A stretch of 64,000 nucleotides of DNA from a virus (taxonomy: Duplodnaviria > Heunggongvirae > Uroviricota > Caudoviricetes). This document shows, in pieces, positions 255 through 23,140 of this stretch. Numbering within the stretch: the stretch's first letter is position 1; the number at the start of each line of letters is the position of its first letter. Made by a program: the position numbers and the translations under genes. The stretch lies in IMG/VR virus record IMGVR_UViG_3300050581_000202; one strand, given 5' to 3'. The notes under the pieces were generated by a model. That model had not been told where the DNA came from. It saw only the letters and a list, made by a program, of their open reading frames with translations, and made no database searches.

Positions 255-570
255 GGGTGACTCCCAATGTCGGTTGGTGTTGCCTCTCCGCTGGGAGATC
301 GCAAAACGCCCGTGAATCTGGAGTGGGATTTCGGTTGCCGACGAGTTTTTCCAAGGCACGATAGAGTAAGTCCCACGCGAGCAGCCGCTTTCGCGGGAAA
401 CCGGCGATGGTTCCGCTTCTCCACTTGCGGCCGGCGGCATCGCACAGTTCGATGCGGTAGCTGCCCTGGGTGGGACTGCCGGTGCCGGTGTTGACGATCT
501 TGCCGGTGGCGATGACCTTGGCACGGGACTCGACGCCCCAGGGCACTAGCTCGATGGTGATGCGGAGCAT
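208..570 (-). CDS. hypothetical protein, possible small beta-barrel protein
   Basis: ORF 208..588. The likely start is the ATG at 568-570 (MLRITIELVPWG...), which overlaps the upstream stop as TGATG. Composition is protein-like for ~75 aa. The 3' third reads through conserved element copy 1, so the true C-terminus is uncertain. Confidence 0.35.
   Translation of the reverse strand: MLRITIELVPWGVESRAKVIATGKIVNTGTGSPTQGSYRIELCDAAGRKWRSGTIAGFPRKRLLAWDLLYRALEKLVGNRNPTPDSRAFCDLPAERQHQPTLGVTHENASAQSERHPQAP
284..325 (-). repeat. conserved ~42-bp intergenic element, copy 1
   Basis: CTCTCCGCTGGGAGATCG-N13-AATCTGGAGTG. About 29 nt upstream (on the minus strand) of the ATG at 254. Confidence 0.8.
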
Positions 571-809
571 CAGTAGCACTCCGGCCACGGTTCACCGTCT
601 TCGGGGTGGTGTTCTCCAGGCGTGCCGTGCCACGCCTCGCCATCTCCGCAGCAGTCGCACGCGGAAACGTCGTGGCAGGAATTGGCCGCGATCCAATCGA
701 GGATGATCTGGTGGTCGCCGGCTTCGTCGAAACGGTTCATTGTCTTGTCGTCCACCTGATGGAGGTTGAGAAAGCCGGTGCCGTCGCAGCGGGTGCAATG
801 GACGCTCAT
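570..809 (-). CDS. small Cys-rich zinc-finger protein (DnaJ-type CxxCxGxG motif)
   Basis: Internal Met of ORF 570..1046 gives MSVHCTRCDGTGFLNL...CDCCGDGEAWHG (79 aa). Its ATG at 807-809 overlaps the methylase stop (ATGA). The annotated N-terminal 80 aa of the long ORF are Arg/Pro-rich junk. Confidence 0.5.
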   Translation of the reverse strand: MSVHCTRCDGTGFLNLHQVDDKTMNRFDEAGDHQIILDWIAANSCHDVSACDCCGDGEAWHGTPGEHHPEDGEPWPECY

Positions 810-1558
810 TCGACCTCCCACAAGGCGCGATGGATGTACTCCGACCGCTTCATGCCGTGCTCTTCGACGATCTTGTCGCAGTAGCCCCGGTCGATCTCGA
901 TCAGGGTGCAGGGGTAGCCCAGCGGCCGGCAAACGCGGAGCGTCGTGCCCGTGCCGCCGAAGGGGTCTAGGACTGACTCGCCTTCTGGCGTGGTGAACTT
1001 CACGCACCGCTCGACCAATCCCTCGTTGAGTTGCGTCGGGTGCCAAGGGCGGCGTTGCTTGCTGTTGCCCACAACCCGCGTGAAATCGAACACGTCGCCG
1101 GGCACGCGGCCGCGCGGGTCAGCCCGCTTGTCGCCGTTCTCCTGCCGCCAACTTGGCACGCGGATCGCATCGGGACGCAGCGGGGCGTCAAGCCACCGCA
1201 GCCGCCAGAGCGGCCGGTGGTTGTTTCCCAGATCGTGGTGGCAATGCTGCCCGAAGGTGAAGGTCTGGACGCAGGGCTTGGCTTCCAAGCCGCTGTTCCG
1301 CCGGACGATCTCGGCCACGATGCGCCCGACCTCGAAGGTCCACTTCGCGTTGAAACTGAACCAAACGGTCTTGGCCCTGTGGACGAACAGATGCAGCCAG
1401 GTCTCCAGCAGGTTCACGTACTGGTGATCGGGCAGCTTGTCCTTGTAGGTTTCGTAGCCCAGGCCGATGTTGTCCGGCGGGTCCGCGAAGATCGTGGTCC
1501 ACGTCTGGCGGTTGCCGTTGAGGTAGTCGAGACAGTCGGCGTTAATCAGGGTGTGCAT
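806..1558 (-). CDS. DNA methyltransferase (N6-adenine/N4-cytosine, beta-class; motif IV then motif I)
   Basis: IFADPPDNIG (DPPY-type motif IV) near the N-terminus and DPFGGTGTT (FxGxG SAM-binding motif I) near the C-terminus. Confidence 0.85.
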   Translation of the reverse strand: MHTLINADCLDYLNGNRQTWTTIFADPPDNIGLGYETYKDKLPDHQYVNLLETWLHLFVHRAKTVWFSFNAKWTFEVGRIVAEIVRRNSGLEAKPCVQTFTFGQHCHHDLGNNHRPLWRLRWLDAPLRPDAIRVPSWRQENGDKRADPRGRVPGDVFDFTRVVGNSKQRRPWHPTQLNEGLVERCVKFTTPEGESVLDPFGGTGTTLRVCRPLGYPCTLIEIDRGYCDKIVEEHGMKRSEYIHRALWEVE

Positions 1559-1599
1559 GGATCAATGGCCTCGATGCTTGTCGTGGCAGACGAAAATCC

Positions 1600-1848
1600 T
1601 CACGGCCGTCTCCGCTTCACAACGACGTAGGTGCCCAGCCAGCCGCCAACGATGTAGGCCACCACGGCGGCAAAGCACTTCTCGACGATCAGGACCGTGG
1701 AGACGATGGTGCAGAGGTAGAGCAGAGCGCTCAGGTTCGCGGCCGTTACTGGCCGTCGTTGTGTCACGGCGGCGATGCACATGGCCCAGATCAGGTCCAT
1801 GAGGAAGCCGCAGATGAACGCCAGTCCAATCACCGCCAACCACGGCAT
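1600..1848 (-). CDS. small membrane protein (2-3 TM helices)
   Basis: 82 aa, strongly hydrophobic (LAVIGLAFICGFLMDLIWAMCIAAV..., VAYIVGGWLGTYVVV) with a basic C-terminus. Confidence 0.4.
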   Translation of the reverse strand: MPWLAVIGLAFICGFLMDLIWAMCIAAVTQRRPVTAANLSALLYLCTIVSTVLIVEKCFAAVVAYIVGGWLGTYVVVKRRRP

Positions 1849-1851
1849 ACA

Positions 1852-2001
1852 TCACTCCGCCAGTTCGCCCGACATGCTGCGGCACACCGGGCACTCAAGG
1901 TTCGATAGCTCACCGTCCGCCGGCACCACAGCCACCCACGTATGCGAACACACCCGGCAGCACGCGAGCCCGCTAATCCAGCCTTCGTGTCCGTCGTCCA
2001 T
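1852..2001 (-). CDS. small zinc-ribbon protein
   Basis: Internal Met of ORF 1852..2205: MDDGHEGWISGLACCRVCSHTWVAVVPADGELSNLECPVCRSMSGELAE (CxxC...CxxC). Its start overlaps the upstream stop as TAATG. The upstream part of the long ORF is Arg/Pro-rich. Confidence 0.4.
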   Translation of the reverse strand: MDDGHEGWISGLACCRVCSHTWVAVVPADGELSNLECPVCRSMSGELAE

Positions 2002-2545: not shown

Positions 2546-2548
2546 GGC

Positions 2549-3553: not shown

Positions 3554-3560
3554 GTCAGGC

Positions 3561-3776
3561 TCATGCTTGTTTGCCGAACGGAATCTGGTGCCAGACCCGT
3601 TCGTGGTAATAGAAGAGGATCAGCTTCACGATGAAGCAGATCAGCGTGAACACCGCACAGCCGCCCAGGTTGCCGAACGTGGCGTAGGCTAGGGCAAAGC
3701 AAACAAGATTAGAGAAGGTTTCCCAGGAGACGGCCTTGACGAAGGACCGCGTGGGCGTGCTCGGATCAGGCCGCAT
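3561..3776 (-). CDS. small membrane protein
   Basis: Internal Met of ORF 3561..3902: MRPDPSTP...FSNLVCFALAYATFGNLGGCAVFTLICFIVKLILFYY (71 aa, 2 TM). Confidence 0.3.
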   Translation of the reverse strand: MRPDPSTPTRSFVKAVSWETFSNLVCFALAYATFGNLGGCAVFTLICFIVKLILFYYHERVWHQIPFGKQA

Positions 3777-4827
3777 GGTAGTTGTCTCCGAGCAATTCAC
3801 GCCCAACCTTGTCACGAACGTGGCGTGCTTCATCAAGCGTCGGGTAGCGGCCCAAGCGATGCTTGACTCCGCAGAACATGATCTCCGGGTGATACCAACC
3901 ATCTTTGACCCAAATGCCTTTCACGCCGCTGGTGTTGTTCGACTGCTTCCCTCGGTTGTGCAAGTTGACGGCTCGCTCTGTGACGCGCAGGTTATCGCGG
4001 GTGTTGTTGAGCGGGTTGCGGTCGATATGATCGACTTGCACGGTCTCCGGGTCATACGGCAGGTTCATACGCACGACGACATCTTGGTGCATGTATCGCG
4101 TCATGCTTCGACCGGCGATTCTCACTTTGCGTTGGGCTCGCCACTTGTCGCTTCCTTGACCTCGCTGTCGTGCGTTGTTTTGCGGAGCGGCTGACCAGTT
4201 CCAACGGCTTAGGTAGGCATGGTCTTCCGGGCTAATAGAAGCGGTCAGGCCGTTCGAGATTGGTATGGTCCGTTTCCCGTATAGGGTGCCGTAGTCTAAA
4301 AACCGCCAGCGGTTGTAGGTATCAATAGGCGGCGGATCGGAAGCAACGTGCCGGACGTAGGCAATCACTTCGTCCCAAGTGCTGAACACATGCTGATGCG
4401 GCAGCGTCCCCCAGTACCAATCGGGTAGTGCGGCTTTGCCTTGTTCCATGTGGACGAGGATCGGCACCTTGCGGCGGTTGAGCAGCGCGATTTCCTCGTG
4501 TGTCCCAGTGGAGTAGACGTTCTTGTCAAGGTGAACGATGGCAAAATCACAGAGATCAGCGAGGCGCAAGTCGATGCAGCGGATCAACCGCATTTCGCGG
4601 GAAATTGTCTCGAAATCACCGCGTTTCTTCTGTTCGAGCCGACGTTGATGGTTTTCCAAGTCTTCACAGGCATAACCGGCTTGCATCGGCTTGGCACAGG
4701 GGTCCAAGAAGATCAGGTCCAGGTCGCGGAGCCGCTCCTTGATTTCATTGCGCCAGCCCGTGCCGAAGTCACTGGCGTTGTCGATAGGCCCAGACAAGTA
4801 GACGCGGTTGTAGAAGAGGCGATTCAC
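3766..4827 (-). CDS. nucleoside 2-deoxyribosyltransferase-like domain fused in frame to an HNH (HNH_3) endonuclease with a C-terminal AP2 domain
   Basis: The likely start is GTG at 4825-4827 overlapping the deoC stop (GTGA); the next ATG is at 4867-4869. N-domain: VYLSGPIDNA...GWRNEIKERL...DLIFLDP...DLCDFAIVHLDKNVYSTGTHEEIALLNRRKVPILV, a Rossmann-like NDT/DUF4406 pattern. C-domain: VQVDHIDRNPLNNTRDNLRV (HNH) followed by SGVKGIWVKDGWYHPEI...GRYPTLDEARHVRDKV (AP2). No stop and no Met lie between the domains. Confidence 0.6.
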   Translation of the reverse strand: MNRLFYNRVYLSGPIDNASDFGTGWRNEIKERLRDLDLIFLDPCAKPMQAGYACEDLENHQRRLEQKKRGDFETISREMRLIRCIDLRLADLCDFAIVHLDKNVYSTGTHEEIALLNRRKVPILVHMEQGKAALPDWYWGTLPHQHVFSTWDEVIAYVRHVASDPPPIDTYNRWRFLDYGTLYGKRTIPISNGLTASISPEDHAYLSRWNWSAAPQNNARQRGQGSDKWRAQRKVRIAGRSMTRYMHQDVVVRMNLPYDPETVQVDHIDRNPLNNTRDNLRVTERAVNLHNRGKQSNNTSGVKGIWVKDGWYHPEIMFCGVKHRLGRYPTLDEARHVRDKVGRELLGDNYHAA

Positions 4828-5472
4828 GGCAGCAACTCCTGGTAGCGGGACGAGCCGAGTCGAGTGCATCCCAGGTCCAAGTAGCGAGCGGCATCGGAAT
4901 AGGTCTTGATGCCGCCGCTGGCCTTGACTTGGGCCTCGCCATCGACGGCTACCAACATGGTCTTGACGGCTTCGGGCGTAGCCCCTCCGGGTCCGAAGCC
5001 GGTCGATGTCTTCACGAAGTCCACGCCACTCTTGACACACAGGCGGCAGGCTTCGTGGATTTGGTCCGGCGTGTAGTAGCACGCCTCCAAGATCGCCTTG
5101 ACCAACACGCCGCGCGGCCGGGCGGCCTTGACGATTGCGGCGATGTCCCAGAAGGCATCGTGTCGGCCGCTCTCAAGAAACCGGCCATAGTTGGCCACCA
5201 CGTCCAATTCCTTCGCTCCATAGTCCATCGCTGCTACGGCCTCGGCGTATTTGGCCTCGGGCAGCGTGTTTCCGTGAGGAAAGGCAATGACGGCGCACAC
5301 GTTGCCGTACAGGTCGCTCGCCATCGGCACCCAAGCCGGGGCAATGCAGACCGACTTGATCTGCCAGGCGACGGCCAGGGCACAAGCGGCTCGCACGTCG
5401 GCGGCCGTGGCGGTCGGCTTCAACACGGCCAAGTCCAGGGCAGCGGCAATCTGTTCGCGGGTGTAGCTCATA
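4824..5472 (-). CDS. deoC: deoxyribose-phosphate aldolase
   Basis: Start MSYTREQIAAALDLAVLKPTAT. DeoC signatures are SVCIAPAWV, ELDVVANYG, VKAILEACYYT, DFVKTSTGFGPGGAT and KASGGIKT. The upstream 50 aa of ORF 4824..5630 are Arg/Gly-rich junk. Confidence 0.8.
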
Positions 5473-9062: not shown

Positions 9063-9229
9063 CAGTAACACCTGTCCGAAAGCAGGGATCGGAGGAGCAG
9101 TTCCACGTCGGCAGTCCGCCGCGTGCGGACCCGTCGCTCGACTGCCACGGGCCGGCTGTAGACCGTCAGGCCGGGCCACCACGCGGCCCGCTCCACCCAA
9201 TCAGCCGGAATGAAGTCAACGGCGTGCAT
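9063..9229 (-). CDS. small hypothetical protein (55 aa)
   Basis: Not in the ORF track. MHAVDFIPADWVERAAWWPGLTVYSRPVAVERRVRTRRTADVELLLRSLLSDRCY*. Its stop overlaps the ligase ATG as TGATG, and a GAGGTG RBS lies 9 nt upstream. Confidence 0.3.
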
Positions 9230-9253
9230 GTACGTGTCACCTCACAAGCTGCG

Positions 9254-9862
9254 TTAGTCTCTCCGCTGGGAGATCGTAAATCCGGGTGACTTCTGGAGTG
9301 CCGCCGCGAGTTTTTCCTCCAGATACAAGCGGGGGTCTAAAGCCCAAAGGTCATTCCAGGGCCTTGGGACGGTGATGGCGTGGCCACCGTTGGCCTCGAA
9401 CCGCTCGATGTTTTCGCCGTAGTCGTCGATCAGCAGGGAGTCGGGACGAGCGAAAAGGTGCTTCCGGGGCGTGATGGCGTACTGCCGGTGCATCCACTCG
9501 GGAAAGTGGTCGTGAATCCACTCCAGCTTTCCCGCCAGGCAGTCGGGGTCTTTCGTCGGCGAGGTGGCGATGCAGACGTTCTCGCGGCCAACGGCTTGCG
9601 CGCAGGCGTCCAAGAGCCAAGGGAAGAAGTCGGACTCCGGCACCTTGATCCAGACGGAGCGCGGGATCGACGCCCAGAGCGTGGCCGGGGTGTAGCGCGG
9701 CCCACCCAACATGGCGTTGGCGGCGTCCGAGATATTGAAGCCATGCGCACGCGGATAGCGCGCATAGTCGCTCGGGCCGATGTTGCCGCCGACCGAGTGC
9801 AGCACGAACGGTGCCAGCGTATTGCACACGTCGTCCAAGTCCAGGAAGATGCGCCGGATCAT
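9254..9862 (-). CDS. HAD-superfamily 5'(3')-deoxyribonucleotidase-like protein
   Basis: N-terminal IFLDLDDVCN (HAD DxDxV motif, as in NT5C-type deoxynucleotidases), about 200 aa long. Confidence 0.55.
   Translation of the reverse strand: MIRRIFLDLDDVCNTLAPFVLHSVGGNIGPSDYARYPRAHGFNISDAANAMLGGPRYTPATLWASIPRSVWIKVPESDFFPWLLDACAQAVGRENVCIATSPTKDPDCLAGKLEWIHDHFPEWMHRQYAITPRKHLFARPDSLLIDDYGENIERFEANGGHAITVPRPWNDLWALDPRLYLEEKLAAALQKSPGFTISQRRD
9258..9300 (-). repeat. conserved ~42-bp element, copy 2
   Basis: TCTCTCCGCTGGGAGATCG-N13-CTTCTGGAGTG. Overlaps the last 14 codons of the nucleotidase gene and lies ~29 nt upstream of the small ORF start at 9229. Confidence 0.8.
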
Positions 9863-10542
9863 TCGTTGCGCAGGGCCTCCAGCTTGCGCTGCACGCGGGC
9901 GTCAATTTGCTTGGACATCCGTTGCACGGCCATGCGGGATTTGCCAATGGCGGTCCCAATCTCAACGAGCGTGTGGCCCGCTTCCCGCATGGCAACAAGC
10001 GTCCGCTCGTCTTCACCGGCGCAACACGAGTCGATCAGATCGCGGATTTCCAGTTCCTCTTGGTAGGAGGGAACCTCGAACCGCTCGGGGATGGCGTTGC
10101 AGACCTCGGGTGCTTCAAGCTCTTGACCATTCGCACGGGCGCGATACTTGGAACGAGCAGGCAGCCGGATGGTGTGTTCTGCGTCAACCAATTCTCCAAG
10201 TTCACGATTGATCCACATGCCAATGAAATCAGTTGGCGCAACGGGATCAGTGTTGCGCGGCCCCTCGCCGCGGGCCATCTTGTTGACCGCTTTGACCAGG
10301 CCGACGCATCCGGCGCTGACCAAATCATCGCGGAGATGTGCAATACTTGGGAACGAGCGGATGAAGGCTTCCACCTTCGAGAGGACCAACGGCATGTTGC
10401 CGCTAATCATGGTCTCTCGGGCCTTCTTGTCGCCGGCCGCAACGCGCGGGTGCAAGTCGGCGTTCTTCTCAGCCGTCCATGTCTCGCTGTTGGTCGCACG
10501 GTGCAGACCGGCAACTAGCTTTTCGTTGTACTGGTTACTCAC
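9859..10542 (-). CDS. sigma-70 family (ECF-like) RNA polymerase sigma factor
   Basis: Region 2 is DLHPRVAAGDKKARETMISGNMPLVLSKV...LVSAGCVGLVKAVNKM; the region 4 HTH is LVEIGTAIGKSRMAVQRMSKQ. The likely GTG start at 10540-10542 overlaps the upstream stop. The Ala/Thr/Pro-rich N-terminal 54 codons of the ORF were rejected. Confidence 0.7.
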   Translation of the reverse strand: MSNQYNEKLVAGLHRATNSETWTAEKNADLHPRVAAGDKKARETMISGNMPLVLSKVEAFIRSFPSIAHLRDDLVSAGCVGLVKAVNKMARGEGPRNTDPVAPTDFIGMWINRELGELVDAEHTIRLPARSKYRARANGQELEAPEVCNAIPERFEVPSYQEELEIRDLIDSCCAGEDERTLVAMREAGHTLVEIGTAIGKSRMAVQRMSKQIDARVQRKLEALRNE

Positions 10543-11032
10543 GGGTGCGCTCTCCAACGGGGTCAATCCGCCAGGCACAGCGGGTGTAGAACTGGTGGGC
10601 CTCGCAGGCGAGGCGGGAGTAGTCGTAGACCGACCCCTTGGGGTCGCAGATGCGCCCGTGGTCGTAGGCGACAACATGGCCGAAGCGCGCGCCGCGGCCG
10701 TCAATCACGCCACGACTCGCCCGGATCGTCTCCTCGAACCGCCGCCAGTTGTTGTTCGCATAGAGCACCGTCTTGTGCGGCCCACCTTCCGTGGGTTGCA
10801 GGACGGGGAACAGTTCCACCGGCGTGACGGCGAACCCGCGGGCCAGGGCGACTTGGATTGGCTCTTGGATGTGGAAGCACCGCCGGCGCAGCGGCTCGGA
10901 CAGACTGGGGAAGACGATCTCGCTGCCGTCGTGGCCAATGGCCGCGAGCAGATCGGCGACGGGCATATCCAAGGCCATTGCGAAGGCCAGAGGCATACAC
11001 ATCCACGGCTCGGGACGTTGTTGTAGTTCCAT
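10535..11032 (-). CDS. hypothetical protein (possible papain-like Cys/His peptidase)
   Basis: 165 aa with protein-like composition. Has an N-terminal Cys (WMCMPLAFAM) and a C-terminal His (FGHVVAYDHG). Confidence 0.3.
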   Translation of the reverse strand: MELQQRPEPWMCMPLAFAMALDMPVADLLAAIGHDGSEIVFPSLSEPLRRRCFHIQEPIQVALARGFAVTPVELFPVLQPTEGGPHKTVLYANNNWRRFEETIRASRGVIDGRGARFGHVVAYDHGRICDPKGSVYDYSRLACEAHQFYTRCAWRIDPVGERTRE

Positions 11033-11089: not shown

Positions 11090-11488
11090 CTACCAGCCTT
11101 CGCGGTCTAGCTCGTCCAGCAGGGCGTCGATGTCAGGAACCTGACCCCAGGACGCCTTCCAGTAGTTGCGCCAGTTGGGCGGCGCGAACAGTTTGTCGTA
11201 TTCTTCTTGTGTCGCGGCCGTGAGTATCCAGATGCCGATGCCGAAGGCTTCCCATACGGGCCATTTCAGCTTTTGGGCCTTGGTGAAGCTGTAGTTGTTT
11301 CCCGGCCGCTTCACGTCGATCCATCGCTGGCCCCATTTGGGATGCGCGACGAACAGGTCGGGTATGCCCATCTGGAAGGCGTTGCCGATCATCCGCTCGA
11401 CGTGCCAGTCTCGAATCTTGAGGTAGGCCATCAGCGCTTGCTGGATGTGCCACTCTTGGCTGTGCTTTGGCCGGCGGATGTCACCCAC
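11090..11488 (-). CDS. VRR-NUC domain nuclease
   Basis: GIPDLFVAHPKWGQRWIDVKRPG...FTKAQKLK matches the VRR-NUC pattern. The likely GTG start at 11486-11488 overlaps the polA TAG (TAGTG); an alternative ATG is at 11429-11431. The ORF N-terminus is junk. Confidence 0.55.
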   Translation of the reverse strand: MGDIRRPKHSQEWHIQQALMAYLKIRDWHVERMIGNAFQMGIPDLFVAHPKWGQRWIDVKRPGNNYSFTKAQKLKWPVWEAFGIGIWILTAATQEEYDKLFAPPNWRNYWKASWGQVPDIDALLDELDREGW

Positions 11489-13989
11489 TACTTCATCATC
11501 TCCGGCGCTCTGATCTTGACCTGCGTGGCTCCCGACTTCTTCTCCGCCCAGTTGTTCATCCCCTCGCACCAGTCCATGCCGATCAGCGGCACGTAGGGAC
11601 GGAAATGCTCGACGGAATCCCGGACCACCTCCGTGACACTCGAAACCGTGTCCGGCCGGGTGACGCACATGATCTCGTCGTGGATATTCATGGGGGCGAC
11701 GTGCCAGTCATGGACGCCCACCGGCTGCAAGTCCCAAATCTTGCGCTGGACGTGCTTCGTGATTTCAGCGCCGGGCGATTGGATTTCGTGGTTTGCCGCT
11801 GCCCGCATGTTGGCCGCCTGCATCGAGAACGCCGCGCCGTAGAGGGCCGAGGAGACGGCACCGCCGGCCGTCTGCACGCGGTCGCGGCGGACGACCTTGA
11901 CTTTGCAGTCCTTCCAGTGCTTTGGTGTGTTGCGGGCCAAGTCGAAGATCGCGCGGGCGATGCGGTTCTCCAACGTGAAGTAGCGGCGGAATCCCAGCAT
12001 GGTCTCGGCGTAGTCGGCAGGGTCTTTCCAGACCACCTTCGTGCCGATGCCAGCCGGCTGGGTCATGGAGCAGAACGAATCGGCGACCCGCTTGCGCCAT
12101 CGCTTGACGCCCACGAACCGGCTACCAAAGTTCTCGATGGCCGCTTTGGCGACTTCTTCGCTAATGCCCAAACGGTTGACCAGCGTGCTATGGTCGCCGC
12201 CGTAGAGCATTGTGCCGAAGAAGCCCTGCTTGCCCTTCGTGTACATATCGTTGGTCGTGCTGCCGTCGCTCGACTTGACCTCTTCGTAAGTCGTGCCGGG
12301 GAAGATCGCCATGCCGAACAGGGCGTGAATCTTCCGGCCAGCAATCAACTCGGCGCGTAGTGCCTCGTCGTTGCACACGGCGTCGGCGATTGTCACCTCG
12401 AAGGAACTGAAGTCGCCGCCGCAGAGCAGATACCCGTTCCAGGCCAAGGGGAACGTCTGCCGGACTTCCTTGGTGTGCTTGATGCCCTGGGCATTCAGGC
12501 CATCCGCTCCGGCCATGCGGGACGAGAGGGCACCAATCACGACAAACGAGGCATGGAACTTGCCGGCCAAGAGCAACTTGTCGTATAGCTCGATTTCCTT
12601 GGCGGCGAACTTGACGCCGAGGATCTCCTTGGCACGGACGCCGGCCGGATGCCGGCCCACCTTCAGGCAGCCCGTGCCGCCGCAGCGTGCGCAATGCGCG
12701 TCGTCGCCCTGACACTTGCCGCACGGCTCTGACTCGCCGACGTAGCAGGCACCCTTGCACTCGGGGCAGGTGTCCGTTTCCTCGTGCAGATGGCCCTTGC
12801 CCTTGCACCTCGGGCACAACTGGCCGACCCCCCATTTGCTGATCGCTTCGAGGTTGGCCTTCTTCGTGGAGGTGTCGAGAATCAAGTGCTCGGTGCCATC
12901 CATCGCGGCCGTGATGTAGGCCCGGACCTCGCCCGGCTTGTTGATGTTCACCGGGCTGGCAGCCACCGTGGCTTCGGCCTTCGCCTTTAGGGCCTCGATC
13001 CCTTCGCGGTCGATCGTGAAGCCGTGCCAGCGGACGGCCGCCACCATGCAGGTCAGGGTCGAGTCGTTGTCCCCCGGCTCGGGGCAGCCGAAGTGCTTGT
13101 CCAGCGCCCGCGTATAAACGATGTCGTCGGTGGCGTACTCGCGGGCGTCCTGGCGGGTCGCCCAATGGTCAATGAACTGCCGAATCACGCCAGGCCAGGC
13201 ATACTTCGTGACTCTCTTGCCGGTGCCGCCCTCTTCGTCAGTTTCAATCGCCCAGCCCTTTTCGAGAGTGGACACGGCCAGGGCTGTGGGCGCATAGCCC
13301 AACTCGTAGGGTCGCCAGGCCGGGGGCGGCTCCACGTCCTTGTAGTGATACTTGGGCTTGAGCTTCAGGGCGTGCTCGGCGAGAAATTTGAGGCCGCCAG
13401 CCGGATTGAACTTCAAGACGACATCCTTGAACTCCGTGTCCAGATCGCCGAATGAATCGTGGCGGTCGAAGACCTGCCACTTGGGAGCTTCCGGGTCGGC
13501 CGAGCGGGCGAAGTAGATGTTGTCAAACTGGACGCGGGCCTCCAACTCGCGGGCCAGGGCATAGGCCAGCGCCGTGGGCACTCGCTTGATCCTGACATCC
13601 TCACGGGCCATGAGCGACTGGTAGGGGCCTTTGCGGCTGTGGAGCATCAGGTCCAGGACCGCTGCCGGCTTGATGCACGGGCCATCCTGTCCCTGGGGCT
13701 CCAGCATGGCGATCTCGTCGATGTGCTCTTGGGGTATCCAGTCCGGGTCACAGAGGCGGAAGGTCGTGTAGATTTTGCAGACGTGGAACCAGTCGAAGGA
13801 CAGGTTGAAGCCCACGACCGTGTGCTGGCATATCCACTCGATCAGCGCCAGCGTTTCGCGGATCGGCCTCCGCCAGACCTCGTACAGGACAACAGGGCCG
13901 TCTTCCACGGCGTACTGCAACAGCACCATCATGCTGTGCAACCCGCAGGTCTCCGTATCGAGGTAGAGTTTCGGCGGATGCTCGCTCAT
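11488..13989 (-). CDS. family A DNA polymerase (PolI-like, with 3'-5' exonuclease domain)
   Basis: LYLDTETCGL (Exo I), KGKQGFFGTMLYGG (motif B region) and NIHDEIMCV (motif C). A Cys-rich insertion is present: CPRCKGKGHLHEETDTCPECKG...CGKCQGDDAHCARCGGTGC. Confidence 0.9.
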   Translation of the reverse strand: MSEHPPKLYLDTETCGLHSMMVLLQYAVEDGPVVLYEVWRRPIRETLALIEWICQHTVVGFNLSFDWFHVCKIYTTFRLCDPDWIPQEHIDEIAMLEPQGQDGPCIKPAAVLDLMLHSRKGPYQSLMAREDVRIKRVPTALAYALARELEARVQFDNIYFARSADPEAPKWQVFDRHDSFGDLDTEFKDVVLKFNPAGGLKFLAEHALKLKPKYHYKDVEPPPAWRPYELGYAPTALAVSTLEKGWAIETDEEGGTGKRVTKYAWPGVIRQFIDHWATRQDAREYATDDIVYTRALDKHFGCPEPGDNDSTLTCMVAAVRWHGFTIDREGIEALKAKAEATVAASPVNINKPGEVRAYITAAMDGTEHLILDTSTKKANLEAISKWGVGQLCPRCKGKGHLHEETDTCPECKGACYVGESEPCGKCQGDDAHCARCGGTGCLKVGRHPAGVRAKEILGVKFAAKEIELYDKLLLAGKFHASFVVIGALSSRMAGADGLNAQGIKHTKEVRQTFPLAWNGYLLCGGDFSSFEVTIADAVCNDEALRAELIAGRKIHALFGMAIFPGTTYEEVKSSDGSTTNDMYTKGKQGFFGTMLYGGDHSTLVNRLGISEEVAKAAIENFGSRFVGVKRWRKRVADSFCSMTQPAGIGTKVVWKDPADYAETMLGFRRYFTLENRIARAIFDLARNTPKHWKDCKVKVVRRDRVQTAGGAVSSALYGAAFSMQAANMRAAANHEIQSPGAEITKHVQRKIWDLQPVGVHDWHVAPMNIHDEIMCVTRPDTVSSVTEVVRDSVEHFRPYVPLIGMDWCEGMNNWAEKKSGATQVKIRAPEMMK

Positions 13990-14349
13990 TCAGAAGACCT
14001 CGTAGGACCAACGGCTGCCATCTTCGTGCTTCCCGCTTACGCTGGCGGCCGTGACCGGCTTCGTGCGGTAGAGGCCATTGCGGAACCGTATTTCCAGGGT
14101 GAGCCCTTTGCCGATCCAGGAGGGGATCGGTGCTGCCGGACTCGACCAATGGAAGCCGTGAAGCACTTGCCCCACGGTGGCAATCCGCAGTGCCGGATCG
14201 CTGGAACTGATCTCCACAATGCCGTGGATCGGGTACATGACCCGCATCTCATAGAGATAGGGGTCAGCCTCCAAGAGGATGGTGGCATCCGCCTTCAGTT
14301 TGCGTATGTCGATCCCCGGCTCAGCCGGCGGCTTGATCGGCGTGCTCAT
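13990..14349 (-). CDS. hypothetical protein
   Basis: Start MSTPIKPPAEPG (ATG 14347-14349), 7 nt after the ParB-like stop. 119 aa. Its stop abuts the polA ATG (TGAATG). Confidence 0.4.
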   Translation of the reverse strand: MSTPIKPPAEPGIDIRKLKADATILLEADPYLYEMRVMYPIHGIVEISSSDPALRIATVGQVLHGFHWSSPAAPIPSWIGKGLTLEIRFRNGLYRTKPVTAASVSGKHEDGSRWSYEVF

Positions 14350-14356: not shown

Positions 14357-15181
14357 TCACTCCGCTGGGAGATCGGGAAGTCTCGCGCTTTCTGGAGTCG
14401 CCGCCTCAATTTCTTTCAGCAATGTCTCGTCAGAGACCTGACCGGCGCACCACGCGGCCACACGGGGCGGCAGGCCGCTGATGCCAACGGCCAACATCCG
14501 TTCGATCATGCGGTTGATTTCTTCGCGCGGCCGGACACTGCGGCGGCGTTTATACGTTCTGGCAAGACCCGGCAGGAACTTCCCCTTGCCGCGCTGCCGC
14601 GCCTCGGCGATCTTGTCGGCAGCGGCGATCTGCTCGTCGGCCGACTCGATTCCTGCCAGCGTGTCCAGGTTCCACTGCGAAAGCAGACCAGCAGCGGCCT
14701 TCTGTTGAATGGCCTCGGGCATCCGCAACAGCCGCACGCGGACCCAGACCCATCGCGTGTCCCGCTTTAGCTCGCGGGCCGCCTCCCGCACGCTCGCCCC
14801 GTGGGGATAGAGGTTCTGGATCGCACGGGCCTCTTCCAGGATGTTCAGGCTCTTGCGTTGCAGGTTCTCGACCAGATTCAGCATCCGGGCTTCATGGTCG
14901 CTCAAGCCCTCGCAGACGTAGGAGGGAATCTCCGTCCATTTCAGGAACTCGGTCACGGCCCGGAAGCGGCGGTGCCCGACGATCAGGCGGTACTGGCAGC
15001 CGGGTTCCTCCGTCCAAGGCTGGATGGCGACCGGGCAGATCAGCCGCCCTGCCTGGGCGATGCTCTCGGCCAGTTCTCTGACGGATTGCAGTGTGAACTC
15101 GCCACGACAGTTGAAGGTGGCGTCACAGTAAATGGTCGCCGCCGGGACGGGATATGCCTGGTACTGTTCCAGCGGTTTCAT
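14357..15181 (-). CDS. ParB/sulfiredoxin-like nuclease domain protein
   Basis: Start MKPLEQYQAY (ATG 15179-15181, ATGA overlap with the upstream gene). Contains the ParB N-domain motif RLIVGHRRFRAV. Confidence 0.6.
   Translation of the reverse strand: MKPLEQYQAYPVPAATIYCDATFNCRGEFTLQSVRELAESIAQAGRLICPVAIQPWTEEPGCQYRLIVGHRRFRAVTEFLKWTEIPSYVCEGLSDHEARMLNLVENLQRKSLNILEEARAIQNLYPHGASVREAARELKRDTRWVWVRVRLLRMPEAIQQKAAAGLLSQWNLDTLAGIESADEQIAAADKIAEARQRGKGKFLPGLARTYKRRRSVRPREEINRMIERMLAVGISGLPPRVAAWCAGQVSDETLLKEIEAATPESARLPDLPAE
14358..14399 (-). repeat. conserved ~42-bp element, copy 3
   Basis: CACTCCGCTGGGAGATCG-N13-TTTCTGGAGTC. Overlaps the ParB-like C-terminus and lies 9 nt upstream of the start at 14349. 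Confidence 0.8.
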
Positions 15182-15978
15182 CGCAAGGCACGGGAAAAAA
15201 GCGCAGGCCGGTTGCTGGGCAGCCATTCCCAGACGGCTGCGCTGCCGTCGTCGTTGATCCGCACGAAAGTATCGTTCGTCCTTGCCCAAGTCCCAGTGTT
15301 GAAGTGGTAGTCGCCGATCGAGCCCGGCTCGTGCGTGTGACCGTAGACCACCACGTCCGCCCCAGCCTCCTTGCGATACGCTTCTACGCCATCAAGCATT
15401 TCATCCATGCGGCCGTGCTGAAGGGTCAACTTCCGCCAGAGGGTCAAGGCCCCTTCCAACGTGCCGACGAACTGATCTTCCACGGCACGATGATTCGTCG
15501 AAAACGGCCCCCGATTGCGGTCTTCCAACAGGCCGGAAATGATCGCGGTGATCTCGCCGGTGCCGGGGTTGGCGTCGCGGCAATACGGGTCGGACTCGTG
15601 CCCGTGGAGGAAGGCAAACCGCCGACCGCCGATGGTCGCCTCGAAGGCCCTGGACATGGCGGGCAACGTAAGCCCCTGCAATTTGATCTGGGTGCCGATG
15701 AAGTCGATCAAGGCGTTGTCGTGGTTGCCGACTACCCACAAGGCCCCGAGCGGACCCATGTGTGCCATACGTGCCAGCAGGTCTTGATAGGCGCGAATCG
15801 ACCGGCTCAGGTTGACTTGCCACCAATCGAACAGATCGCCCAGGATATAGAGGAGGCCGCCTTCGGTCTCCACGTAATCCAGGAACTTGTGGAAGCGGAC
15901 CTCGCGGCCCTCCGCCGCGAAGTTATCGCGGTAGCCCCGGTCGCACAGATGCAAGTCGCTCACGCAGAAGATGGACAT
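15178..15978 (-). CDS. calcineurin-like metallophosphoesterase
   Basis: CVSDLHL, ILGDLFDWW, GNHD, LHGHE and GHTHEP motifs. Confidence 0.7.
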   Translation of the reverse strand: MSIFCVSDLHLCDRGYRDNFAAEGREVRFHKFLDYVETEGGLLYILGDLFDWWQVNLSRSIRAYQDLLARMAHMGPLGALWVVGNHDNALIDFIGTQIKLQGLTLPAMSRAFEATIGGRRFAFLHGHESDPYCRDANPGTGEITAIISGLLEDRNRGPFSTNHRAVEDQFVGTLEGALTLWRKLTLQHGRMDEMLDGVEAYRKEAGADVVVYGHTHEPGSIGDYHFNTGTWARTNDTFVRINDDGSAAVWEWLPSNRPALFSRALR

Positions 15979-16711: not shown

Positions 16712-18028
16712 TCAGGTCTTCAGCGGCCCCACGTCGCGGCCACCGTCGATCAGGTAGCGCCTGGGGCCGTTCTTCTCGTTCTCGTGGCGCAGCTTGCAAT
16801 TCATCCGCCAGGTGATGCCGTGCTTCGGATTGACGCCGTGAAGCCACTGGGACGGCTCGCGGTAGCCGGACAAGGAGTTGTAGGCGAAGGCGTCGGTGCC
16901 CACCCACGACCCGTTGACCAGCAGTTCGCCGTCCACGTCGGACAGGACGCTGGCGGCATGATGATGGCCGACGCAGAAATAGCGGCAGCGCTGGGCACCG
17001 GCCGCCGCACCCAGGGCGATCAGGCCCTTCTGCCGGCGGACCATGCCGTACCACGGGATGCCCAGGTTGGAGCGAACGTCGTCGCCGTGGGCGATGTTGA
17101 AGCCGACGCCGTTGATGTTGACGTTGGCGCTCCACGCATCGGGAATCGTGAAGTGGACGTTCTCCACGCCACGACAATGCAGACGCGCGACCTCACCGAC
17201 CAGATAATCCCAGTTGTCGTGCGCGCCGAGGTAGTCCTTCTTGGGTGTCCGCCGGCCGTGGTTGCCGGCCAGGTACAAGACATGGACCTCCTCGAAGTGG
17301 GCGGCCAGGTCGCGGTACATCAGGGCGTGCAACTGGCCGATGGCGAGGCAGTTCTTGAACTGGTTGCGGTAGTAGCTGCGCTCGCACGCCTTGTGGATTT
17401 CGCCGCTGGTGAAGTCGCCGTAGGCCAAGACCCACAGCACCGGGAAGTAGAACTTGGGTGCGAGGGTGTCCTGGGTCCATTCCACGACCGTGTTGACGTA
17501 CCGCTCGGCGCGACAACACGAGACGGGGAAGTTGTAGTCTTCCAGCCCGCCTACCTGATCGGGAACCACGACCTGATCGTGGTGGCCGTCCGACAGGTGC
17601 ATGACGCAGTGCTCGACGATCTGCGCCTTGCGTCGGTACTCGAAGGCCGTCGGCAGCGGCTCAAACGGCTTGATGCGTTGTTCCATTTCCGCAACGACGG
17701 CCTTGAACAAGCCGGCGATCTTCGCCCCGGCCTTGACCTTCTGCCGTTCGCGGTTTCGTTCATCGGTCAAATGGACGATCTCGGCCTCCAACTCCAAGAC
17801 CCGTTTGTCGGTCGGGTCGTAGTCCGGGAGAGTCTTGTGCTGGCCGCCGGCCCGCTTGGGCGTCGGCGGTTCCCCGCTCGGCCACTGCACGTCTTTGTGG
17901 ACCCGGCCCGTGGCGATGTCGGACACGATGGAGCGACTGACCTTGAATTGCCTGGCAATATCCGGCTGCGTGACGCCATCCGTGATGGCCTGCTTGATCT
18001 TCTCAACCTTCTTCTTGGTCAGCTTCAT
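16712..18028 (-). CDS. HTH domain fused to a PPP-type Ser/Thr-phosphatase-like metallophosphoesterase
   Basis: The N-terminal HTH is KIKQAITDGVTQPDIARQFKVSRSIVSDIATGRV. Phosphoesterase motifs follow: LSDGHHDQ, AYGDFTSGEIH, YLAGNHG, IAHGDD and VGHHH. Confidence 0.6.
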   Translation of the reverse strand: MKLTKKKVEKIKQAITDGVTQPDIARQFKVSRSIVSDIATGRVHKDVQWPSGEPPTPKRAGGQHKTLPDYDPTDKRVLELEAEIVHLTDERNRERQKVKAGAKIAGLFKAVVAEMEQRIKPFEPLPTAFEYRRKAQIVEHCVMHLSDGHHDQVVVPDQVGGLEDYNFPVSCCRAERYVNTVVEWTQDTLAPKFYFPVLWVLAYGDFTSGEIHKACERSYYRNQFKNCLAIGQLHALMYRDLAAHFEEVHVLYLAGNHGRRTPKKDYLGAHDNWDYLVGEVARLHCRGVENVHFTIPDAWSANVNINGVGFNIAHGDDVRSNLGIPWYGMVRRQKGLIALGAAAGAQRCRYFCVGHHHAASVLSDVDGELLVNGSWVGTDAFAYNSLSGYREPSQWLHGVNPKHGITWRMNCKLRHENEKNGPRRYLIDGGRDVGPLKT

Positions 18029-18042
18029 GGTGTGTCCTTGTC

Positions 18043-19432: not shown

Positions 19433-19468
19433 CGTTGCAACTCCAGGGGTCAGAGAAGGTTTTGCAGA

Positions 19469-19855: not shown

Positions 19856-21888
19856 GATGCGACCTCCTCCACCGACATCTCGCCTTCTTCACCGGCATCC
19901 TTCCAATCGACGCCTTGGAGGAATTCACCCATCGTCATTAGCTCCAACTTCCGGTTGGCGCGGATCACGTCGAGCACGCGGCTGTCACTCGGCAGATGGA
20001 TCAGGTCCACGATGGTGCATCCCAGGTTCTCGTCCATGCCCTTGCGGTGGATGCGGTCTTCGCTTTGCACCCGGTATTCCGGCTTCCAACTGTTGGACCA
20101 GTACACCGCCATGCGGGCCTCCACCAACGTCAGGCTCATGCCGCCTGACTCCGGGTTGGCCACAAAAGCAACCTTGCCGTGGCCTTCCAAGTTGGCCCAG
20201 TAGTCCAGTGGCTCTTCTTCCGTTGCCAACGCGCCGTCCGGGCCGTCGCTCTTGGCGCGAAACACCTGGAAGTTCCCCTGGTCGCAGCGCACCACGTCCC
20301 ACTTTTCCTTGAGGCACAGCCTGACGATGCGATCCACCGAGCCGGTGAAGCCGGCGAAGATCACCAACCGCCCGACTTCCTCGTTCTCGTCCAACAGCAT
20401 CTTCAGGGCGGCGTCCTTCGGACACGGGACTTCCCGCGCAACACGGACCATCCGCGGTACTTCCCGCTTGCCGCCGCATGCCGGGCAAGGAACGGTCTGC
20501 TTGACCAACCGGGCCTTCAACTCGGGGTCCAGCAAGTCGATGGCCTGGTAAGTGGCCTCGGGATCGTCCGGGTCCACCCATTCGGCGACGGTGCCGTCCG
20601 CGCAATGCGTGCATTTCGTCACGCCGTCTTGCTGTTCGCGGTACTGGAAGCCGTCGCTCAGTTCCCGCAGCAGGGTCATGCCCGTCACGGCGTTGGGTGC
20701 CGCGCCGAAAAGGGCCTCGGCCACGCGCAACGTGCTGGCGGACGGCTTGCAAACGACCTTCCGGTATCGTTTTTCCGGCAGTTGCAGGCAGTCCTTCTTG
20801 TGCTTGATGACGACCAGCCCTTTGAGCCGGTCGTAGAGGTAGGCAACCTCGTTGGTGCTGGCGACGAACTTGTGGTAGCTGTCCGGGTCCGTTACGCCGT
20901 CCAATTCGTGCGGTCCCTCCTCGAACGTCTCTCCACACTGGGCGCATTTCCTCTGGTCGTCCTTCCAGCCGATGCGCTTCTTGAACTTGCCGGCATCGAA
21001 CTGCTGCTCAACCATGAAGGCCAAGCGTTCTTCCATCGCGCGGCGGCTGCCCTCTTTCAGGAAGCCCGGCCAGGCAATCTCGCACTGGCTCCACCAGTCG
21101 CACGGCGTCTTCGGCGACGGCGTGCCCGACATCTCGATCACGTAGCCCTCGTGGCCAAACGTCGTGCGGATCAGGTCCGCGAGCTTCTGGCAGGCTTTGG
21201 AGCGCTGCGAGGTGTCGTTCTTGCACCGGCTCGATTCATCCGCCACGAAGAACCGCGGCAAGGTCTGCGAGCCGTCCCACTCGTCCATAACGCGGACCAG
21301 ACCTTCATAGGTGAAGAACTCCACCTGGATGCGGTCGAAGGGAAAACCCCACAGCTTGAACTCACGCTTGATGTTCGGAATGCTGGTCTTCGGCCCCGCC
21401 CACCACACCAGATCGACGCCCGACTTCTCAATCACCATCTGGGCGGCCAGGGTCTTGCCCGTGCCCATCTCGGCACCGAATATCTGGTAGTGATACGTCA
21501 GGCCGGCGTCGGCCATGTCTGCCTGATGCGGCATGAAGTTCTGCGGCACGCCGCCGCGCATCAGCGGGCGGTACTCGTGACGCACAAGCGGGCGGTCGAA
21601 CCAGGCGTAGACATCCTCGCCGCAGAGATAGCCGATTTGGAAACGATTGCGCTGGCAGTCGTCCACGGACCACACTTTGATCTTGGCGTACTCGCCCTCG
21701 TCGTCGTAGCCGTGGAAGTGCGCGCCGCGCATGGCCTTGACTTCCGCCATCAGCCCGTAGCGAGTCTTCGTGCCGACCTTGCCGTCCCAGAAATAGATGC
21801 GGCCATCCTTTCTTTCCAACAGCACGGGCACACGAATCCTCGTGCCGCTGGATGTCTGGGCTTCAACCTTCACGGACTCAAGCGACAT
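19852..21888 (-). CDS. SNF2-family DEAD/DEAH-box helicase with zinc-ribbon insertions
   Basis: GAEMGTGKT (Walker A), FFVADESSRC (DExx) and a C-terminal helicase domain (LTLVEARMAVYWSNSWKPEYRVQSEDRIHRKGM). Inserted Cys pairs: CAQCG, CTHCADG and CPACGG. Confidence 0.85.
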   Translation of the reverse strand: MSLESVKVEAQTSSGTRIRVPVLLERKDGRIYFWDGKVGTKTRYGLMAEVKAMRGAHFHGYDDEGEYAKIKVWSVDDCQRNRFQIGYLCGEDVYAWFDRPLVRHEYRPLMRGGVPQNFMPHQADMADAGLTYHYQIFGAEMGTGKTLAAQMVIEKSGVDLVWWAGPKTSIPNIKREFKLWGFPFDRIQVEFFTYEGLVRVMDEWDGSQTLPRFFVADESSRCKNDTSQRSKACQKLADLIRTTFGHEGYVIEMSGTPSPKTPCDWWSQCEIAWPGFLKEGSRRAMEERLAFMVEQQFDAGKFKKRIGWKDDQRKCAQCGETFEEGPHELDGVTDPDSYHKFVASTNEVAYLYDRLKGLVVIKHKKDCLQLPEKRYRKVVCKPSASTLRVAEALFGAAPNAVTGMTLLRELSDGFQYREQQDGVTKCTHCADGTVAEWVDPDDPEATYQAIDLLDPELKARLVKQTVPCPACGGKREVPRMVRVAREVPCPKDAALKMLLDENEEVGRLVIFAGFTGSVDRIVRLCLKEKWDVVRCDQGNFQVFRAKSDGPDGALATEEEPLDYWANLEGHGKVAFVANPESGGMSLTLVEARMAVYWSNSWKPEYRVQSEDRIHRKGMDENLGCTIVDLIHLPSDSRVLDVIRANRKLELMTMGEFLQGVDWKDAGEEGEMSVEEVAS

Positions 21889-23101
21889 GCAATCTCCCTC
21901 GGGCGATCTCGCAATTGTGTTCGGTCAACTCGACGCCGATGCAGCGGCGGCCCAGGCGCTTGGCGGCCAAAAGCGTGGTGCCGCTGCCAGCGAAGGGGTC
22001 CAGAATCACGCCGCCATCCGGGGTCGAGAGCAGGGTCAGCAGGTACTCCATGAGGCCCAGTGGCTTAACGGTCGGATGGTCGTTGCCCGGCCCGCGCTCC
22101 GTGCGCGTCGCTTTGGCACAGTAGAAAAACCGGCTCGCTCCGCCCGAGTCGCCATAGCTCACCTGCACGTCGCCCGCCCTGCCGATGCCACCGTGATAGC
22201 CGTCGCCCGACTTGGTGCGGACGCAGTTGGTGCCACTGGTTAGCGTGCCGGTCTGTGCATCGAGTTGGACTGCCACCTCGTCGTCAAGCAACAGATTCGC
22301 CGGCCAACGTCCGCACTCCGATCCGCCTACAGGTGAGCGATTCGTGCTGGCCCAGCCGGCATCCGTTAGGCTGTCGCCGCGCTTGCGCACCGTGCTTTCG
22401 GTGCCGATCCGGCAAGCGTCGATGTTCATGCCGGCCACACCCCAGGTCAGGGCATTGTGGGCAATCGTGCCATCCAGCGGTTTCATCGCCAGGACGATTG
22501 GCTCCCAGGCCGGCTTGAGGGCCATTGCCCAGCCGGTCCACCGCGCGGCCTCGGGAGTGGCGGGAGCCGTTATCTGCGCGGCGCGAAGCCGAGCGTCGGT
22601 GCCAGGGGCATGAAGGCCGTTGCCACCGCCGTAGCATCCGTTCCCCTTGCCCTCGTGCAGGTGGTAGCCGGGACGGTCGAGCTTGTCGCCAATGACCTGT
22701 CGCTCCGCACCTTTCGATTTGTCAATCAGTTTGCCGATGTCGCCACACTTGGGCATCCCCTGGCCGTAAAGCCACATCAGCGCATCCCGAATCTCCCAGC
22801 CGGCATCCTCGATGGCGCAGCACAGCCGGTGATAGGTCCGCGTGCCGCCGAACGCCAGCAAGAGAGCACCGGGCTTGGACACGCGGGCGATGGCCCGCCA
22901 ATACTCGGGGCCAGGAACCTCGTGGTCCCAGTCCTTCTCCATGAAGCTGAGCCCGTAGGGCGGGTCCGTCGCCACGAAGTCTACCGATGCCTCGGGCAGC
23001 GTAGGCAGCACGTCGAGGCAGTTGCCGCAGTACAGGCTCAGGTTGTTCTGCTCGAAGAAGGGCTGCATGATAGGCGCTGACTCGAAAGCAATGACAGTCA
23101 C
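21878..23101 (-). CDS. DNA methyltransferase (N6A/N4C, DPPY + FxGxG)
   Basis: FVATDPPYG (motif IV) and DPFAGSGTT (motif I). The ORF start is GTG at 23099-23101, inside conserved element copy 4. An alternative ATG (MQPFFEQNN) is at 23066-23068. Confidence 0.85.
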   Translation of the reverse strand: MTVIAFESAPIMQPFFEQNNLSLYCGNCLDVLPTLPEASVDFVATDPPYGLSFMEKDWDHEVPGPEYWRAIARVSKPGALLLAFGGTRTYHRLCCAIEDAGWEIRDALMWLYGQGMPKCGDIGKLIDKSKGAERQVIGDKLDRPGYHLHEGKGNGCYGGGNGLHAPGTDARLRAAQITAPATPEAARWTGWAMALKPAWEPIVLAMKPLDGTIAHNALTWGVAGMNIDACRIGTESTVRKRGDSLTDAGWASTNRSPVGGSECGRWPANLLLDDEVAVQLDAQTGTLTSGTNCVRTKSGDGYHGGIGRAGDVQVSYGDSGGASRFFYCAKATRTERGPGNDHPTVKPLGLMEYLLTLLSTPDGGVILDPFAGSGTTLLAAKRLGRRCIGVELTEHNCEIARGRLHVA

Positions 23102-23140
23102 TCCGCTGGGAGATCGTAAAACGGACCTGAATCTGGAGTG
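23099..23140 (-). repeat. conserved ~42-bp element, copy 4
   Basis: CACTCCGCTGGGAGATCG-N13-AATCTGGAGTG. Lies directly after the stop of gene 23141..23734 and directly upstream of the methyltransferase start. Confidence 0.8.

Follow-up and report, generated by a model that had tools for sequence, protein, structure and literature searches.

A conserved two-box element upstream of replication-module genes in an uncultured Planctomycetota phage: putative promoters and the phage sigma factor that may read them

In an uncultured phage of Planctomycetota (IMG/VR record IMGVR_UViG_3300050581_000202, of which a stretch of 64,000 nt, hereafter the window, was analysed), the replication module carries four copies of a 42-bp element composed of two conserved boxes held at a fixed distance. 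Read on the minus strand, the element has the form [C/G]ACTCCAGA-N15-CGATCTCCCAGCGGAG[A/T]G. The four elements are probably promoters. That they are, more narrowly, promoters specific to the phage that serve its replication and nucleotide-metabolism (“middle”) module and are read with a 227-aa sigma factor encoded by the phage itself, is a proposal that we regard as evenly poised; both initiation at the elements and the part played by the sigma factor are what we infer from the arrangement described below.

The copies are listed here, together with the gene that follows the first of them and the gene of the sigma factor (box 1 is ACTCCAGA, box 2 the 16-mer CGATCTCCCAGCGGAG).

284-325, minus strand: element copy 1 (box 1 at 317-324, spacer at 302-316, box 2 at 286-301, followed by AG)
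ATG at 254, minus strand: gene downstream of copy 1, extending past the window edge
9259-9300, minus strand: element copy 2 (box 1 at 9292-9299, box 2 at 9261-9276)
14358-14399, minus strand: element copy 3 (box 1 at 14391-14398, box 2 at 14360-14375)
23099-23140, minus strand: element copy 4 (box 1 at 23132-23139, box 2 at 23101-23116)
9859-10542, minus strand: sigma-70-family gene (227 aa, sigma2 and sigma4 domains), candidate reader of the elements

All four copies, which an earlier note on this DNA had picked out by inspection, were read back from the sequence, as was their division into two boxes by a spacer of constant length (exactly 15 nt in every copy) and variable sequence. Box 2 has four exact occurrences in the 64 kb, against approximately zero expected, and this count was reached by none of 100 dinucleotide shuffles. 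The 64 kb hold no further copy of the element; the additional matches to box 2 amount to two chance-level sites with three mismatches. A fifth ACTCCAGA, at 30315-30322, stands without box 2 and was set aside as a chance occurrence.

All four copies are confined to the first 23 kb of the window and lie on the coding strand, each next to a gene start. Copy 2 sits in the final 15 codons of an NT5C-like gene (stop at 9256-9254) and precedes a small open reading frame (ORF; ATG at 9229), itself located before the DNA ligase gene. Copy 3 falls within the terminal codons of a ParB-like gene, whose TGA stop is at 14359-14357, and stands ahead of a small gene that precedes polA. Copy 4 begins immediately past a TAG stop (23143-23141) and has a DNA methyltransferase gene (ATG at 23068) downstream. 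The overlap of copies 2 and 3 with the ends of upstream genes had been pointed out before; to this we add that copy 1 is read through as well, by the upstream ORF 208-588. One reading frame is common to copies 1 and 3, another applies to copy 2, and copy 4, placed after a stop, falls in the third register; conservation must therefore be at the nucleotide level and not at the level of protein. The placement of the elements shortly upstream of the next start also stood, and the distances, formerly put at 9-32 nt, were measured from the GGAG of the element to the ATG as 31, 31, 10 and 32 nt for copies 1 to 4 (ATGs at 254, 9229, 14349 and 23068). From box 1 to the start codon, three copies show 70, 70 and 71 nt and copy 3 shows 49 nt. 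Copies 1 and 2 have a Shine-Dalgarno (SD)-like sequence of their own between element and ATG and none was seen there at copy 4; at copy 3, the GGAG of the element, 10 nt before the ATG, is the sole SD-like sequence. Less durable was the claim that the outer hexamers CACTCC/GGAGTG form an inverted repeat. It is whole only in copy 4, copies 1 and 2 ending in GGAGAG and copy 3 starting with GACTCC, and the inverted repeats are peculiar to this lineage, not being kept in others.

The element is present at the same four junctions in five IMG/VR contigs whose proteins are approximately 90-97% identical to those of the window. These junctions were located through the downstream proteins, that is, independently of the motif, and it is on them that the unbiased support for conservation rests; one of our counts of box conservation is partly circular in that its instances were chosen by an exact box 2. 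In the close relatives both boxes are unchanged, and substitutions fall in the spacer and in both flanks. That the spacer varies while the boxes do not speaks against recent duplication or gene conversion and for selection on each box. Taken together with the differing reading frames, the comparison shows selection acting on the DNA of the boxes, not on protein. Single-copy matches to the 16-mer elsewhere in IMG/VR occur in unrelated contexts, lack box 1 and have the appearance of chance hits.

In more distant relatives the same gene junctions are occupied by different sequences. At least 14 distinct versions of the element were found in dozens of related contigs, from metagenomes and from metagenome-assembled genomes (MAGs) of Planctomycetota. 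The order of the genes is kept (ParB, small gene, polA, two small genes, sigma, in some cases NT5C, small gene, ligase) and two-box elements stand upstream of the same three genes, their sequence differing by lineage. Part of the set is given below; several more types exist.

Type A (this window): ACTCCAGAw-N14-CGATCTCCCAGCGGAG
Type B: ACTCCAGAA-N14-CGTCATAGnnGGTAG
Type C: AGTTCCGAw-N14-CGATCTATwGAsTGCC
Type D: ACTCCAAA-N15-CAGTCTATCyrGTG
Type E: ACTCkCGAA-N14-CGTTGTyyCTkATAG
F group: ACTCTAAs-N-TTGCTGATnTA / GTTGATGTG
Type G: AAAACCAG-N-GCAACTCTCTTAGTGGAG
Type H: ACTCCAAA-N15-CGAAATGGTA

Eighteen elements from eight lineages can be aligned without gaps in a single register, with T3, C24 and T29 invariant. 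A larger set of 36 curated elements, representing at least 14 types, yields the consensus ACTCCARAww, a GC-rich spacer, a T-rich stretch at positions 20-22 and C24 G25 W26 T27 n T29, T29 being present in 29 of the 36. Positions 34-42 of these elements are 76% purine. Their GC content at positions 19-33 is 43%, the spacer having 61% and the genome 62%, and this AT-richer segment fits with a melting region. Common to the versions are thus box 1 (ACTCCARA), the fixed register, the T-rich stretch, a CG(A/T)TnT core that begins 15 nt past box 1 and the purine-rich tail, the remainder of box 2 being lineage-specific; the CG(A/T)T core takes the form CGT in types B and E and CGAT in types A and C. 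In the window and in the relatives alike, copies stand upstream of gene starts and always on the coding strand, 10-45 nt before the start codon and at a density of 2-5 per 20 kb.

Two further sequences were noticed beside the elements. The motif CTTTTGAG (window 9230-9250), some 15-25 nt before the ATG of the small gene that precedes the ligase, is kept at this junction in the relatives L058, L068, L077, L065, L067 and L104 (related contigs and loci bear L numbers) despite an entirely different box 2; it is a leader signal separate from the element. In L080 and L158, tandem GAGTGAGGAT repeats follow immediately upon the element located before the small gene preceding polA.

The gene at 9859-10542 specifies a protein with more than 100 homologues (40-97% identity). 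A profile built from 24 of them matches region 2 of SigF (E = 1e-12), RpoS, RpoD and SigA, and its top matches in the PDB are SigF, RpoS and RpoD. In the AlphaFold model (pLDDT, the predicted local distance difference test score, 81), helices within residues 24-121 correspond to sigma2 and those within 159-226 to the sigma4 helix-turn-helix (HTH), the two being separated by a single short helix and not by a full sigma3; the top Foldseek matches of the model are all sigma factors of groups 1-3. Pfam gives weak matches to regions 2 and 4, the region 4 HTH being present. On the combined strength of profiles and predicted structure, the protein is a genuine sigma-70-family factor with a two-domain layout. 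The earlier description of it as sigma-70/ECF-like (ECF, extracytoplasmic function) holds as to the family and is not supported as to the subclass. The model does display the ECF hallmark of sigma2 and sigma4 without sigma3, and no ECF family model was passed, the closest matches being SigF/G and RpoS. Matches to the NCBIfam SigF/G models and to the generic TIGR02937 were obtained with all 24 members, in each case below the cut-off (39.9 bits against a cut-off of 42.9 for TIGR02937), SigF and SigG being the best-scoring specific models; PF07638 was matched by only two of the 24, with E = 0.04.

The sigma gene lies downstream of polA, on the same strand, in 69 of 80 related loci anchored on polA, and most of the others are truncated. 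Relatives without sigma were sought among these 80 as a natural control and nearly all turned out to carry it. Between the window and L058 or L061 the sigma factors are approximately 60% identical, whereas polA (11488-13989) is 91-92% identical; sigma thus diverges far faster than polA, as would be expected if promoter specificity diversifies. Some observations concern the sigma gene and its neighbors. The sigma protein of L191 (P0007) looks like a chimera, with a sigma2 half similar to that of the window lineage and a sigma4 half almost identical to that of L077. Between polA and sigma stand two small conserved genes, both on the minus strand. The one at 11090-11490 specifies, as judged by eye, a PD-(D/E)xK-like motif (GIPDL...DVK). 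The other, at 10535-11032, whose 165-aa product has no family match, overlaps the start of the sigma gene and could encode a sigma partner.

How might the element work? Two boxes about two helical turns apart, a fixed spacer of free sequence, a locally AT-rich box 2 with near-invariant positions, a purine-rich tail at the place of presumed initiation and co-orientation with the genes make up a signature of sigma-70-family promoters, and the centers of the boxes, some 22-23 bp apart, are compatible with -35/-10 geometry. The promoter-like architecture put forward in the earlier note is reinforced by the comparative data (fixed spacing and position upstream of genes); the ECF-type label attached to it is not. 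One could envision that box 1 acts as the -35-like element and the start of box 2 (CGATCT, after the T-rich stretch) as the -10-like element, that host core RNA polymerase together with the 227-aa sigma binds there, and that transcription starts about 6-9 nt further downstream, near GGAG, where box 2 ends in its run of purines. The resulting transcripts would cover a methyltransferase-helicase block, a polA-sigma block, a ligase block and a block beyond the start of the window. Since copies 4 and 3 both precede the sigma gene, sigma might first be expressed by read-through from an upstream promoter of the host type and then boost its own synthesis and that of the whole module. The search for a phage RNA polymerase gene was negative, the large ORFs being those for helicase, primase, tape measure, portal, terminase and proteins of no known function; scans of the module for sigma-70-consensus promoters and for intrinsic terminators returned nothing above shuffled sequences. 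T7-like promoters, suggested by the ...ATAGGGAG ending of several lineages, were considered and rejected: no polymerase was found and the distance between ATAG and box 1 varies.

Several observations sit uneasily with a promoter read by the phage sigma. Box 2 is kept over 16-20 nt within a genome, which is much longer than a -10 element and exceeds what recognition by sigma alone would explain. The type of element does not simply follow sigma similarity: in the mosaic L068, a single genome combines type B, found at the polA junction, with type C, found at the two remaining junctions; type J is common to L190 and L104, whose sigmas have just some 60% identity, and type D to L191 and L077, in which the sigma4 halves are nearly identical and the sigma2 halves differ. 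A Mantel/AUC (area under the curve) test of co-variation over 20 genomes, which included sigma, its two halves, ParB, g3, pX1, pX2, ligase and polA, did not favor sigma over ParB, pX1, pX2 or polA. The best scores went to genes physically adjoining the scored junction, an effect of linkage, in a data set where box 2 distances saturate and only 12 pairs are of the same type. In addition, a transcription start near position 36-38 would put the GGAG of copy 3 at the very 5' end of the mRNA, an awkward place for an SD sequence; the near-constant distance of box 1 to the start codon at the other three copies lacks an explanation in terms of promoters; and no copies of the element occur upstream of late genes, so that sigma could serve a separate, late class of promoters.

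It is tempting to speculate further. The elements and the fast-evolving sigma might constitute a large natural set of mutually orthogonal sigma/promoter pairs within one family of temperate Planctomycetota phages, with at least 14 specificities installed at the same junctions under the pressure of competition between related phages, box 2 being read beyond the -10 hexamer. Diversification would then be a transcriptional analogue of heteroimmunity, and the long box 2 would be contacted either by sigma, which would read the non-template strand as far as and past the start site, or by another factor of the phage. We hold this scheme to be rather unlikely as a whole.

Unlikely, too, is the possibility that the elements are operators, at which a DNA-binding protein of the phage blocks or modulates read-through transcription with lineage specificities as in heteroimmunity. 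Candidates for such a protein would be a repressor conferring immunity, either of the ParB-like HTH proteins (14357-15226 and 24636-25565) or the HTH-exonuclease (16712-18028). The closest parallel is with the stoperators of Cluster A mycobacteriophages, single 13-bp sites that number more than 20 and are spread over the genome (PMC9283540), where they are bound by a monomeric repressor with two domains (PMC9283540; PMC6550527). Like them, the elements are asymmetric, have a single orientation relative to transcription and occupy short positions between genes, and box 2 diversifies among close relatives as stoperator sequences do (PMC9283540). The idea also draws on the probably temperate nature of the phage family (see below), on the fact that copy 3 coincides, in every lineage, with the 3' end of a ParB-like gene, and on box 2 being longer than a -10 element. 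Nevertheless, the four elements are bipartite (8 + 16 nt) and restricted to one module, and the fixed 15-nt spacer, the invariant C and T, the AT-rich center and the purine tail are what one typically finds in promoters and not in a single 13-bp site. ParB parS and KorB operators, moreover, are palindromic (13-16 bp), unlike the asymmetric element, whose 4+4 palindrome CTCC-N4-GGAG exists in this lineage only. No repressor of the stoperator-binding type is evident in the Pfam/PHROG annotation of the window, no search having been aimed at one.

Should the elements be promoters, sigma of the phage need not be their reader. They might be recognized by an alternative sigma of the host, or require some other phage factor, and the phage sigma would then serve a different class of genes, such as the late ones. 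A promoter-like architecture is equally expected in this case; the type of element would have no cause to follow sigma similarity, and the lack of any motif seen upstream of late genes leaves the targets of the phage sigma formally unassigned. Two findings make such an arrangement quite unlikely. Box 2 is wholly different between phages whose polA proteins are 91% identical, and the specificity of a host sigma should not shift so fast, which argues for a fast-evolving specificity factor encoded by the phage; and the sigma gene is embedded in the element-bearing module in nearly all relatives.

The location of the elements on the transcribed strand at cistron boundaries could also denote a signal in RNA: a processing site, an antitermination signal of the nut type, or a start-associated translation signal in which the GGAG tail recruits ribosomes. 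Lambdoid nut sites combine a conserved boxA with a phage-specific boxB hairpin, a pattern that the conserved box 1 and lineage-specific box 2 recall. No boxB-like hairpin is maintained in the elements, however, nor is any other secondary structure: RNAalifold gives no pairs, the two candidate helices (the inverted repeats of the earlier note) pair in 51-53% of cells, as in shuffled and slid controls, and no Rfam match was obtained. The folding suggested in the earlier note showed the four copies to be no more stable than shuffles (z-scores from -1.4 to +0.8), and across the 36 curated elements box 2 had a mean z of -0.5 and the element as a whole one of 0.07. The earlier alternative of a terminator or processing hairpin fares no better, there being no U-run and no match in the terminator scan at the sites. 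Terminator, processing-hairpin and nut-like readings are not supported. As to translation, the purine-rich tail is the sole SD at copy 3 and box 1 keeps its 70-71 nt from the start codon at the other copies. Comparable start-associated repeats exist in Cluster K mycobacteriophages, in which a 13-bp start-associated sequence (SAS) goes with the translation initiation site and the extended form (ESAS) adds 17-bp inverted repeats, the function of both being still unknown (PMC3203893). The two kinds of repeat share one orientation, the tie to gene starts, an SD-like GGAG and an upstream part that varies (by subcluster in the mycobacteriophages). They differ in that the element lacks a conserved inverted repeat and stands 31-32 nt from the start codon in three of its four copies, two of which (copies 1 and 2) have an SD-like sequence of their own, placement at the initiation site being limited to copy 3. 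Fixed spacing of two unpaired boxes is more simply understood on duplex DNA, and we judge a role in RNA decidedly improbable. Finally, the notion that the elements are module-boundary patches of homology for recombination between related phages has in its favor their location, the mosaic L068 and the discordant divergence of sigma and polA, but is very remote, given that the boxes are just 8 and 16 bp long, that exchange would homogenize the spacer too, that a box 2 differing between lineages would hinder and not promote exchange, and that strict conservation of strand and register would be unnecessary.

Promoters that depend on a phage-encoded sigma factor are familiar from classical cases, the middle promoters of SPO1 (gp28) and the late promoters of T4 (gp55). 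The putative promoters described here find their nearest counterpart in Salmonella phage 7-11, where eight promoters of the form GTAAtg-(16)-aCTA are read by host RNA polymerase with the phage sigma gp47, at genome positions that correspond to those of promoters with other sequences in its relative phiEco32 (PMC8948821), whose own sigma, gp36, uses tAATGTAtA (PMC8948821). In both situations a few near-identical motifs stand before gene blocks, the phage encodes a divergent sigma-70-family protein, and relatives keep the positions of the promoters and change their sequences; the bipartite layout is likewise shared with phage 7-11, the spacer measuring 15 nt here and about 16 nt there. The differences are that the putative targets here belong to the replication module and not to the late genes; that the downstream box extends over 16-20 nt, through the presumed start site; that at least 14 specificity variants occur in one phage family; and that the host is probably one of the Planctomycetota and the phage family is without a cultured member. 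By analogy, the present elements look like the same kind of system as that of phage 7-11, in an undescribed family of Planctomycetota phages. A further likeness is with the promoters of bacterial sigma factors of group 3 and group 4, whose established consensus sequences are TAAA-N15-GCCGATAA for sigma28/FliA and GAAC-N16-17-CGTC for ECF factors. The CG(A/T)T core is akin to the CGAT of the former and the CGT of the latter, spacer length is similar and the sigma has two domains. Box 1 (ACTCCARA), on the contrary, resembles neither TAAA nor GGAAC and lacks the AAC of ECF promoters, and the sigma falls under the threshold of every family-specific model.

The genome in which the elements reside is that of a siphovirus-like phage. 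The replication and nucleotide-metabolism module (1-25.6 kb, minus strand) comprises genes for two ParB-like proteins, methyltransferases, helicase, exonuclease, PolA, the sigma-like protein, NT5C and ligase. It is followed by a plus-strand block (25.7-31.7 kb) with primase, a MazZ-like protein and an exonuclease, and by a structural module on the minus strand (31.7-64 kb) with terminase, portal, major head protein, tape measure and six tail-fibre paralogues. A megablast search of 24 kb against cultured phages gave no match, and tblastn with PolA and sigma against known phages gave merely about 24-39% identity, without a close cultured relative. The relatives are metagenomic, several of them in MAG contigs of Planctomycetota (Planctomycetaceae, Thermoguttaceae). 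Relatives of the module in L104 (JAXGPP010000005.1, 480,920 bp) and L105 (CAWBLA010000006.1, 1,068,209 bp) lie within large MAG contigs, of Thermoguttaceae and Planctomycetaceae respectively, which suggests that they are integrated prophages. For this reason the host is probably a planctomycete and the phage family probably temperate.

Other features of the genome deserve mention. An inverted repeat at 25584-25676 (43-nt arms, 84% complementary, with a perfect 23-bp core GACACCTATACAAGACTGCCAAA) occupies a divergent region of about 130 bp between a ParB-like gene (ATG at 25565, the first on the minus strand) and the plus-strand primase block. One of its arms includes TTGACA, and the repeat could be an early promoter/operator region or an origin. 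The product of 28601-29026 (plus strand) has the N-terminal domain of a MazZ-like dATP/dGTP diphosphohydrolase (PF18909, E = 1e-19); no match to an adenylosuccinate-synthetase-like protein (PurZ) was obtained among the ORFs scanned, so a Z-base genome is not indicated. Within the replication module, an ORF at 3766-5082 (minus strand) specifies an HNH_3 endonuclease domain and is possibly a mobile homing endonuclease. The six tail-fibre-like paralogues are arranged in tandem at 39006-44950, each of about 1 kb, with 63-84% DNA identity. The operon past copy 1, looked at in the relative L031 (IMGVR_UViG_3300048599_000872), contains small genes of no known function, an exonuclease and an HTH_17 protein. 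L031 also encodes, at 13251-14276, in the part corresponding to sequence beyond the start of the window, a reverse transcriptase (PF00078, E = 6e-16). This might be part of a diversity-generating retroelement, of interest given the tail-fibre paralogues.

To our knowledge, almost nothing is known of gene control in phages of Planctomycetota. The elements are useful as annotation landmarks for this phage family whether they are promoters or repressor sites; in the latter event they would point to a novel kind of immunity system. If confirmed as promoters, they would provide the first promoter and sigma pair for Planctomycetota phages and delimit the units of middle transcription in a widespread family of uncultured phages. 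The lineage versions, installed at fixed positions, would then amount to a natural library for studying how sigma/promoter specificity evolves and for deriving orthogonal expression parts.

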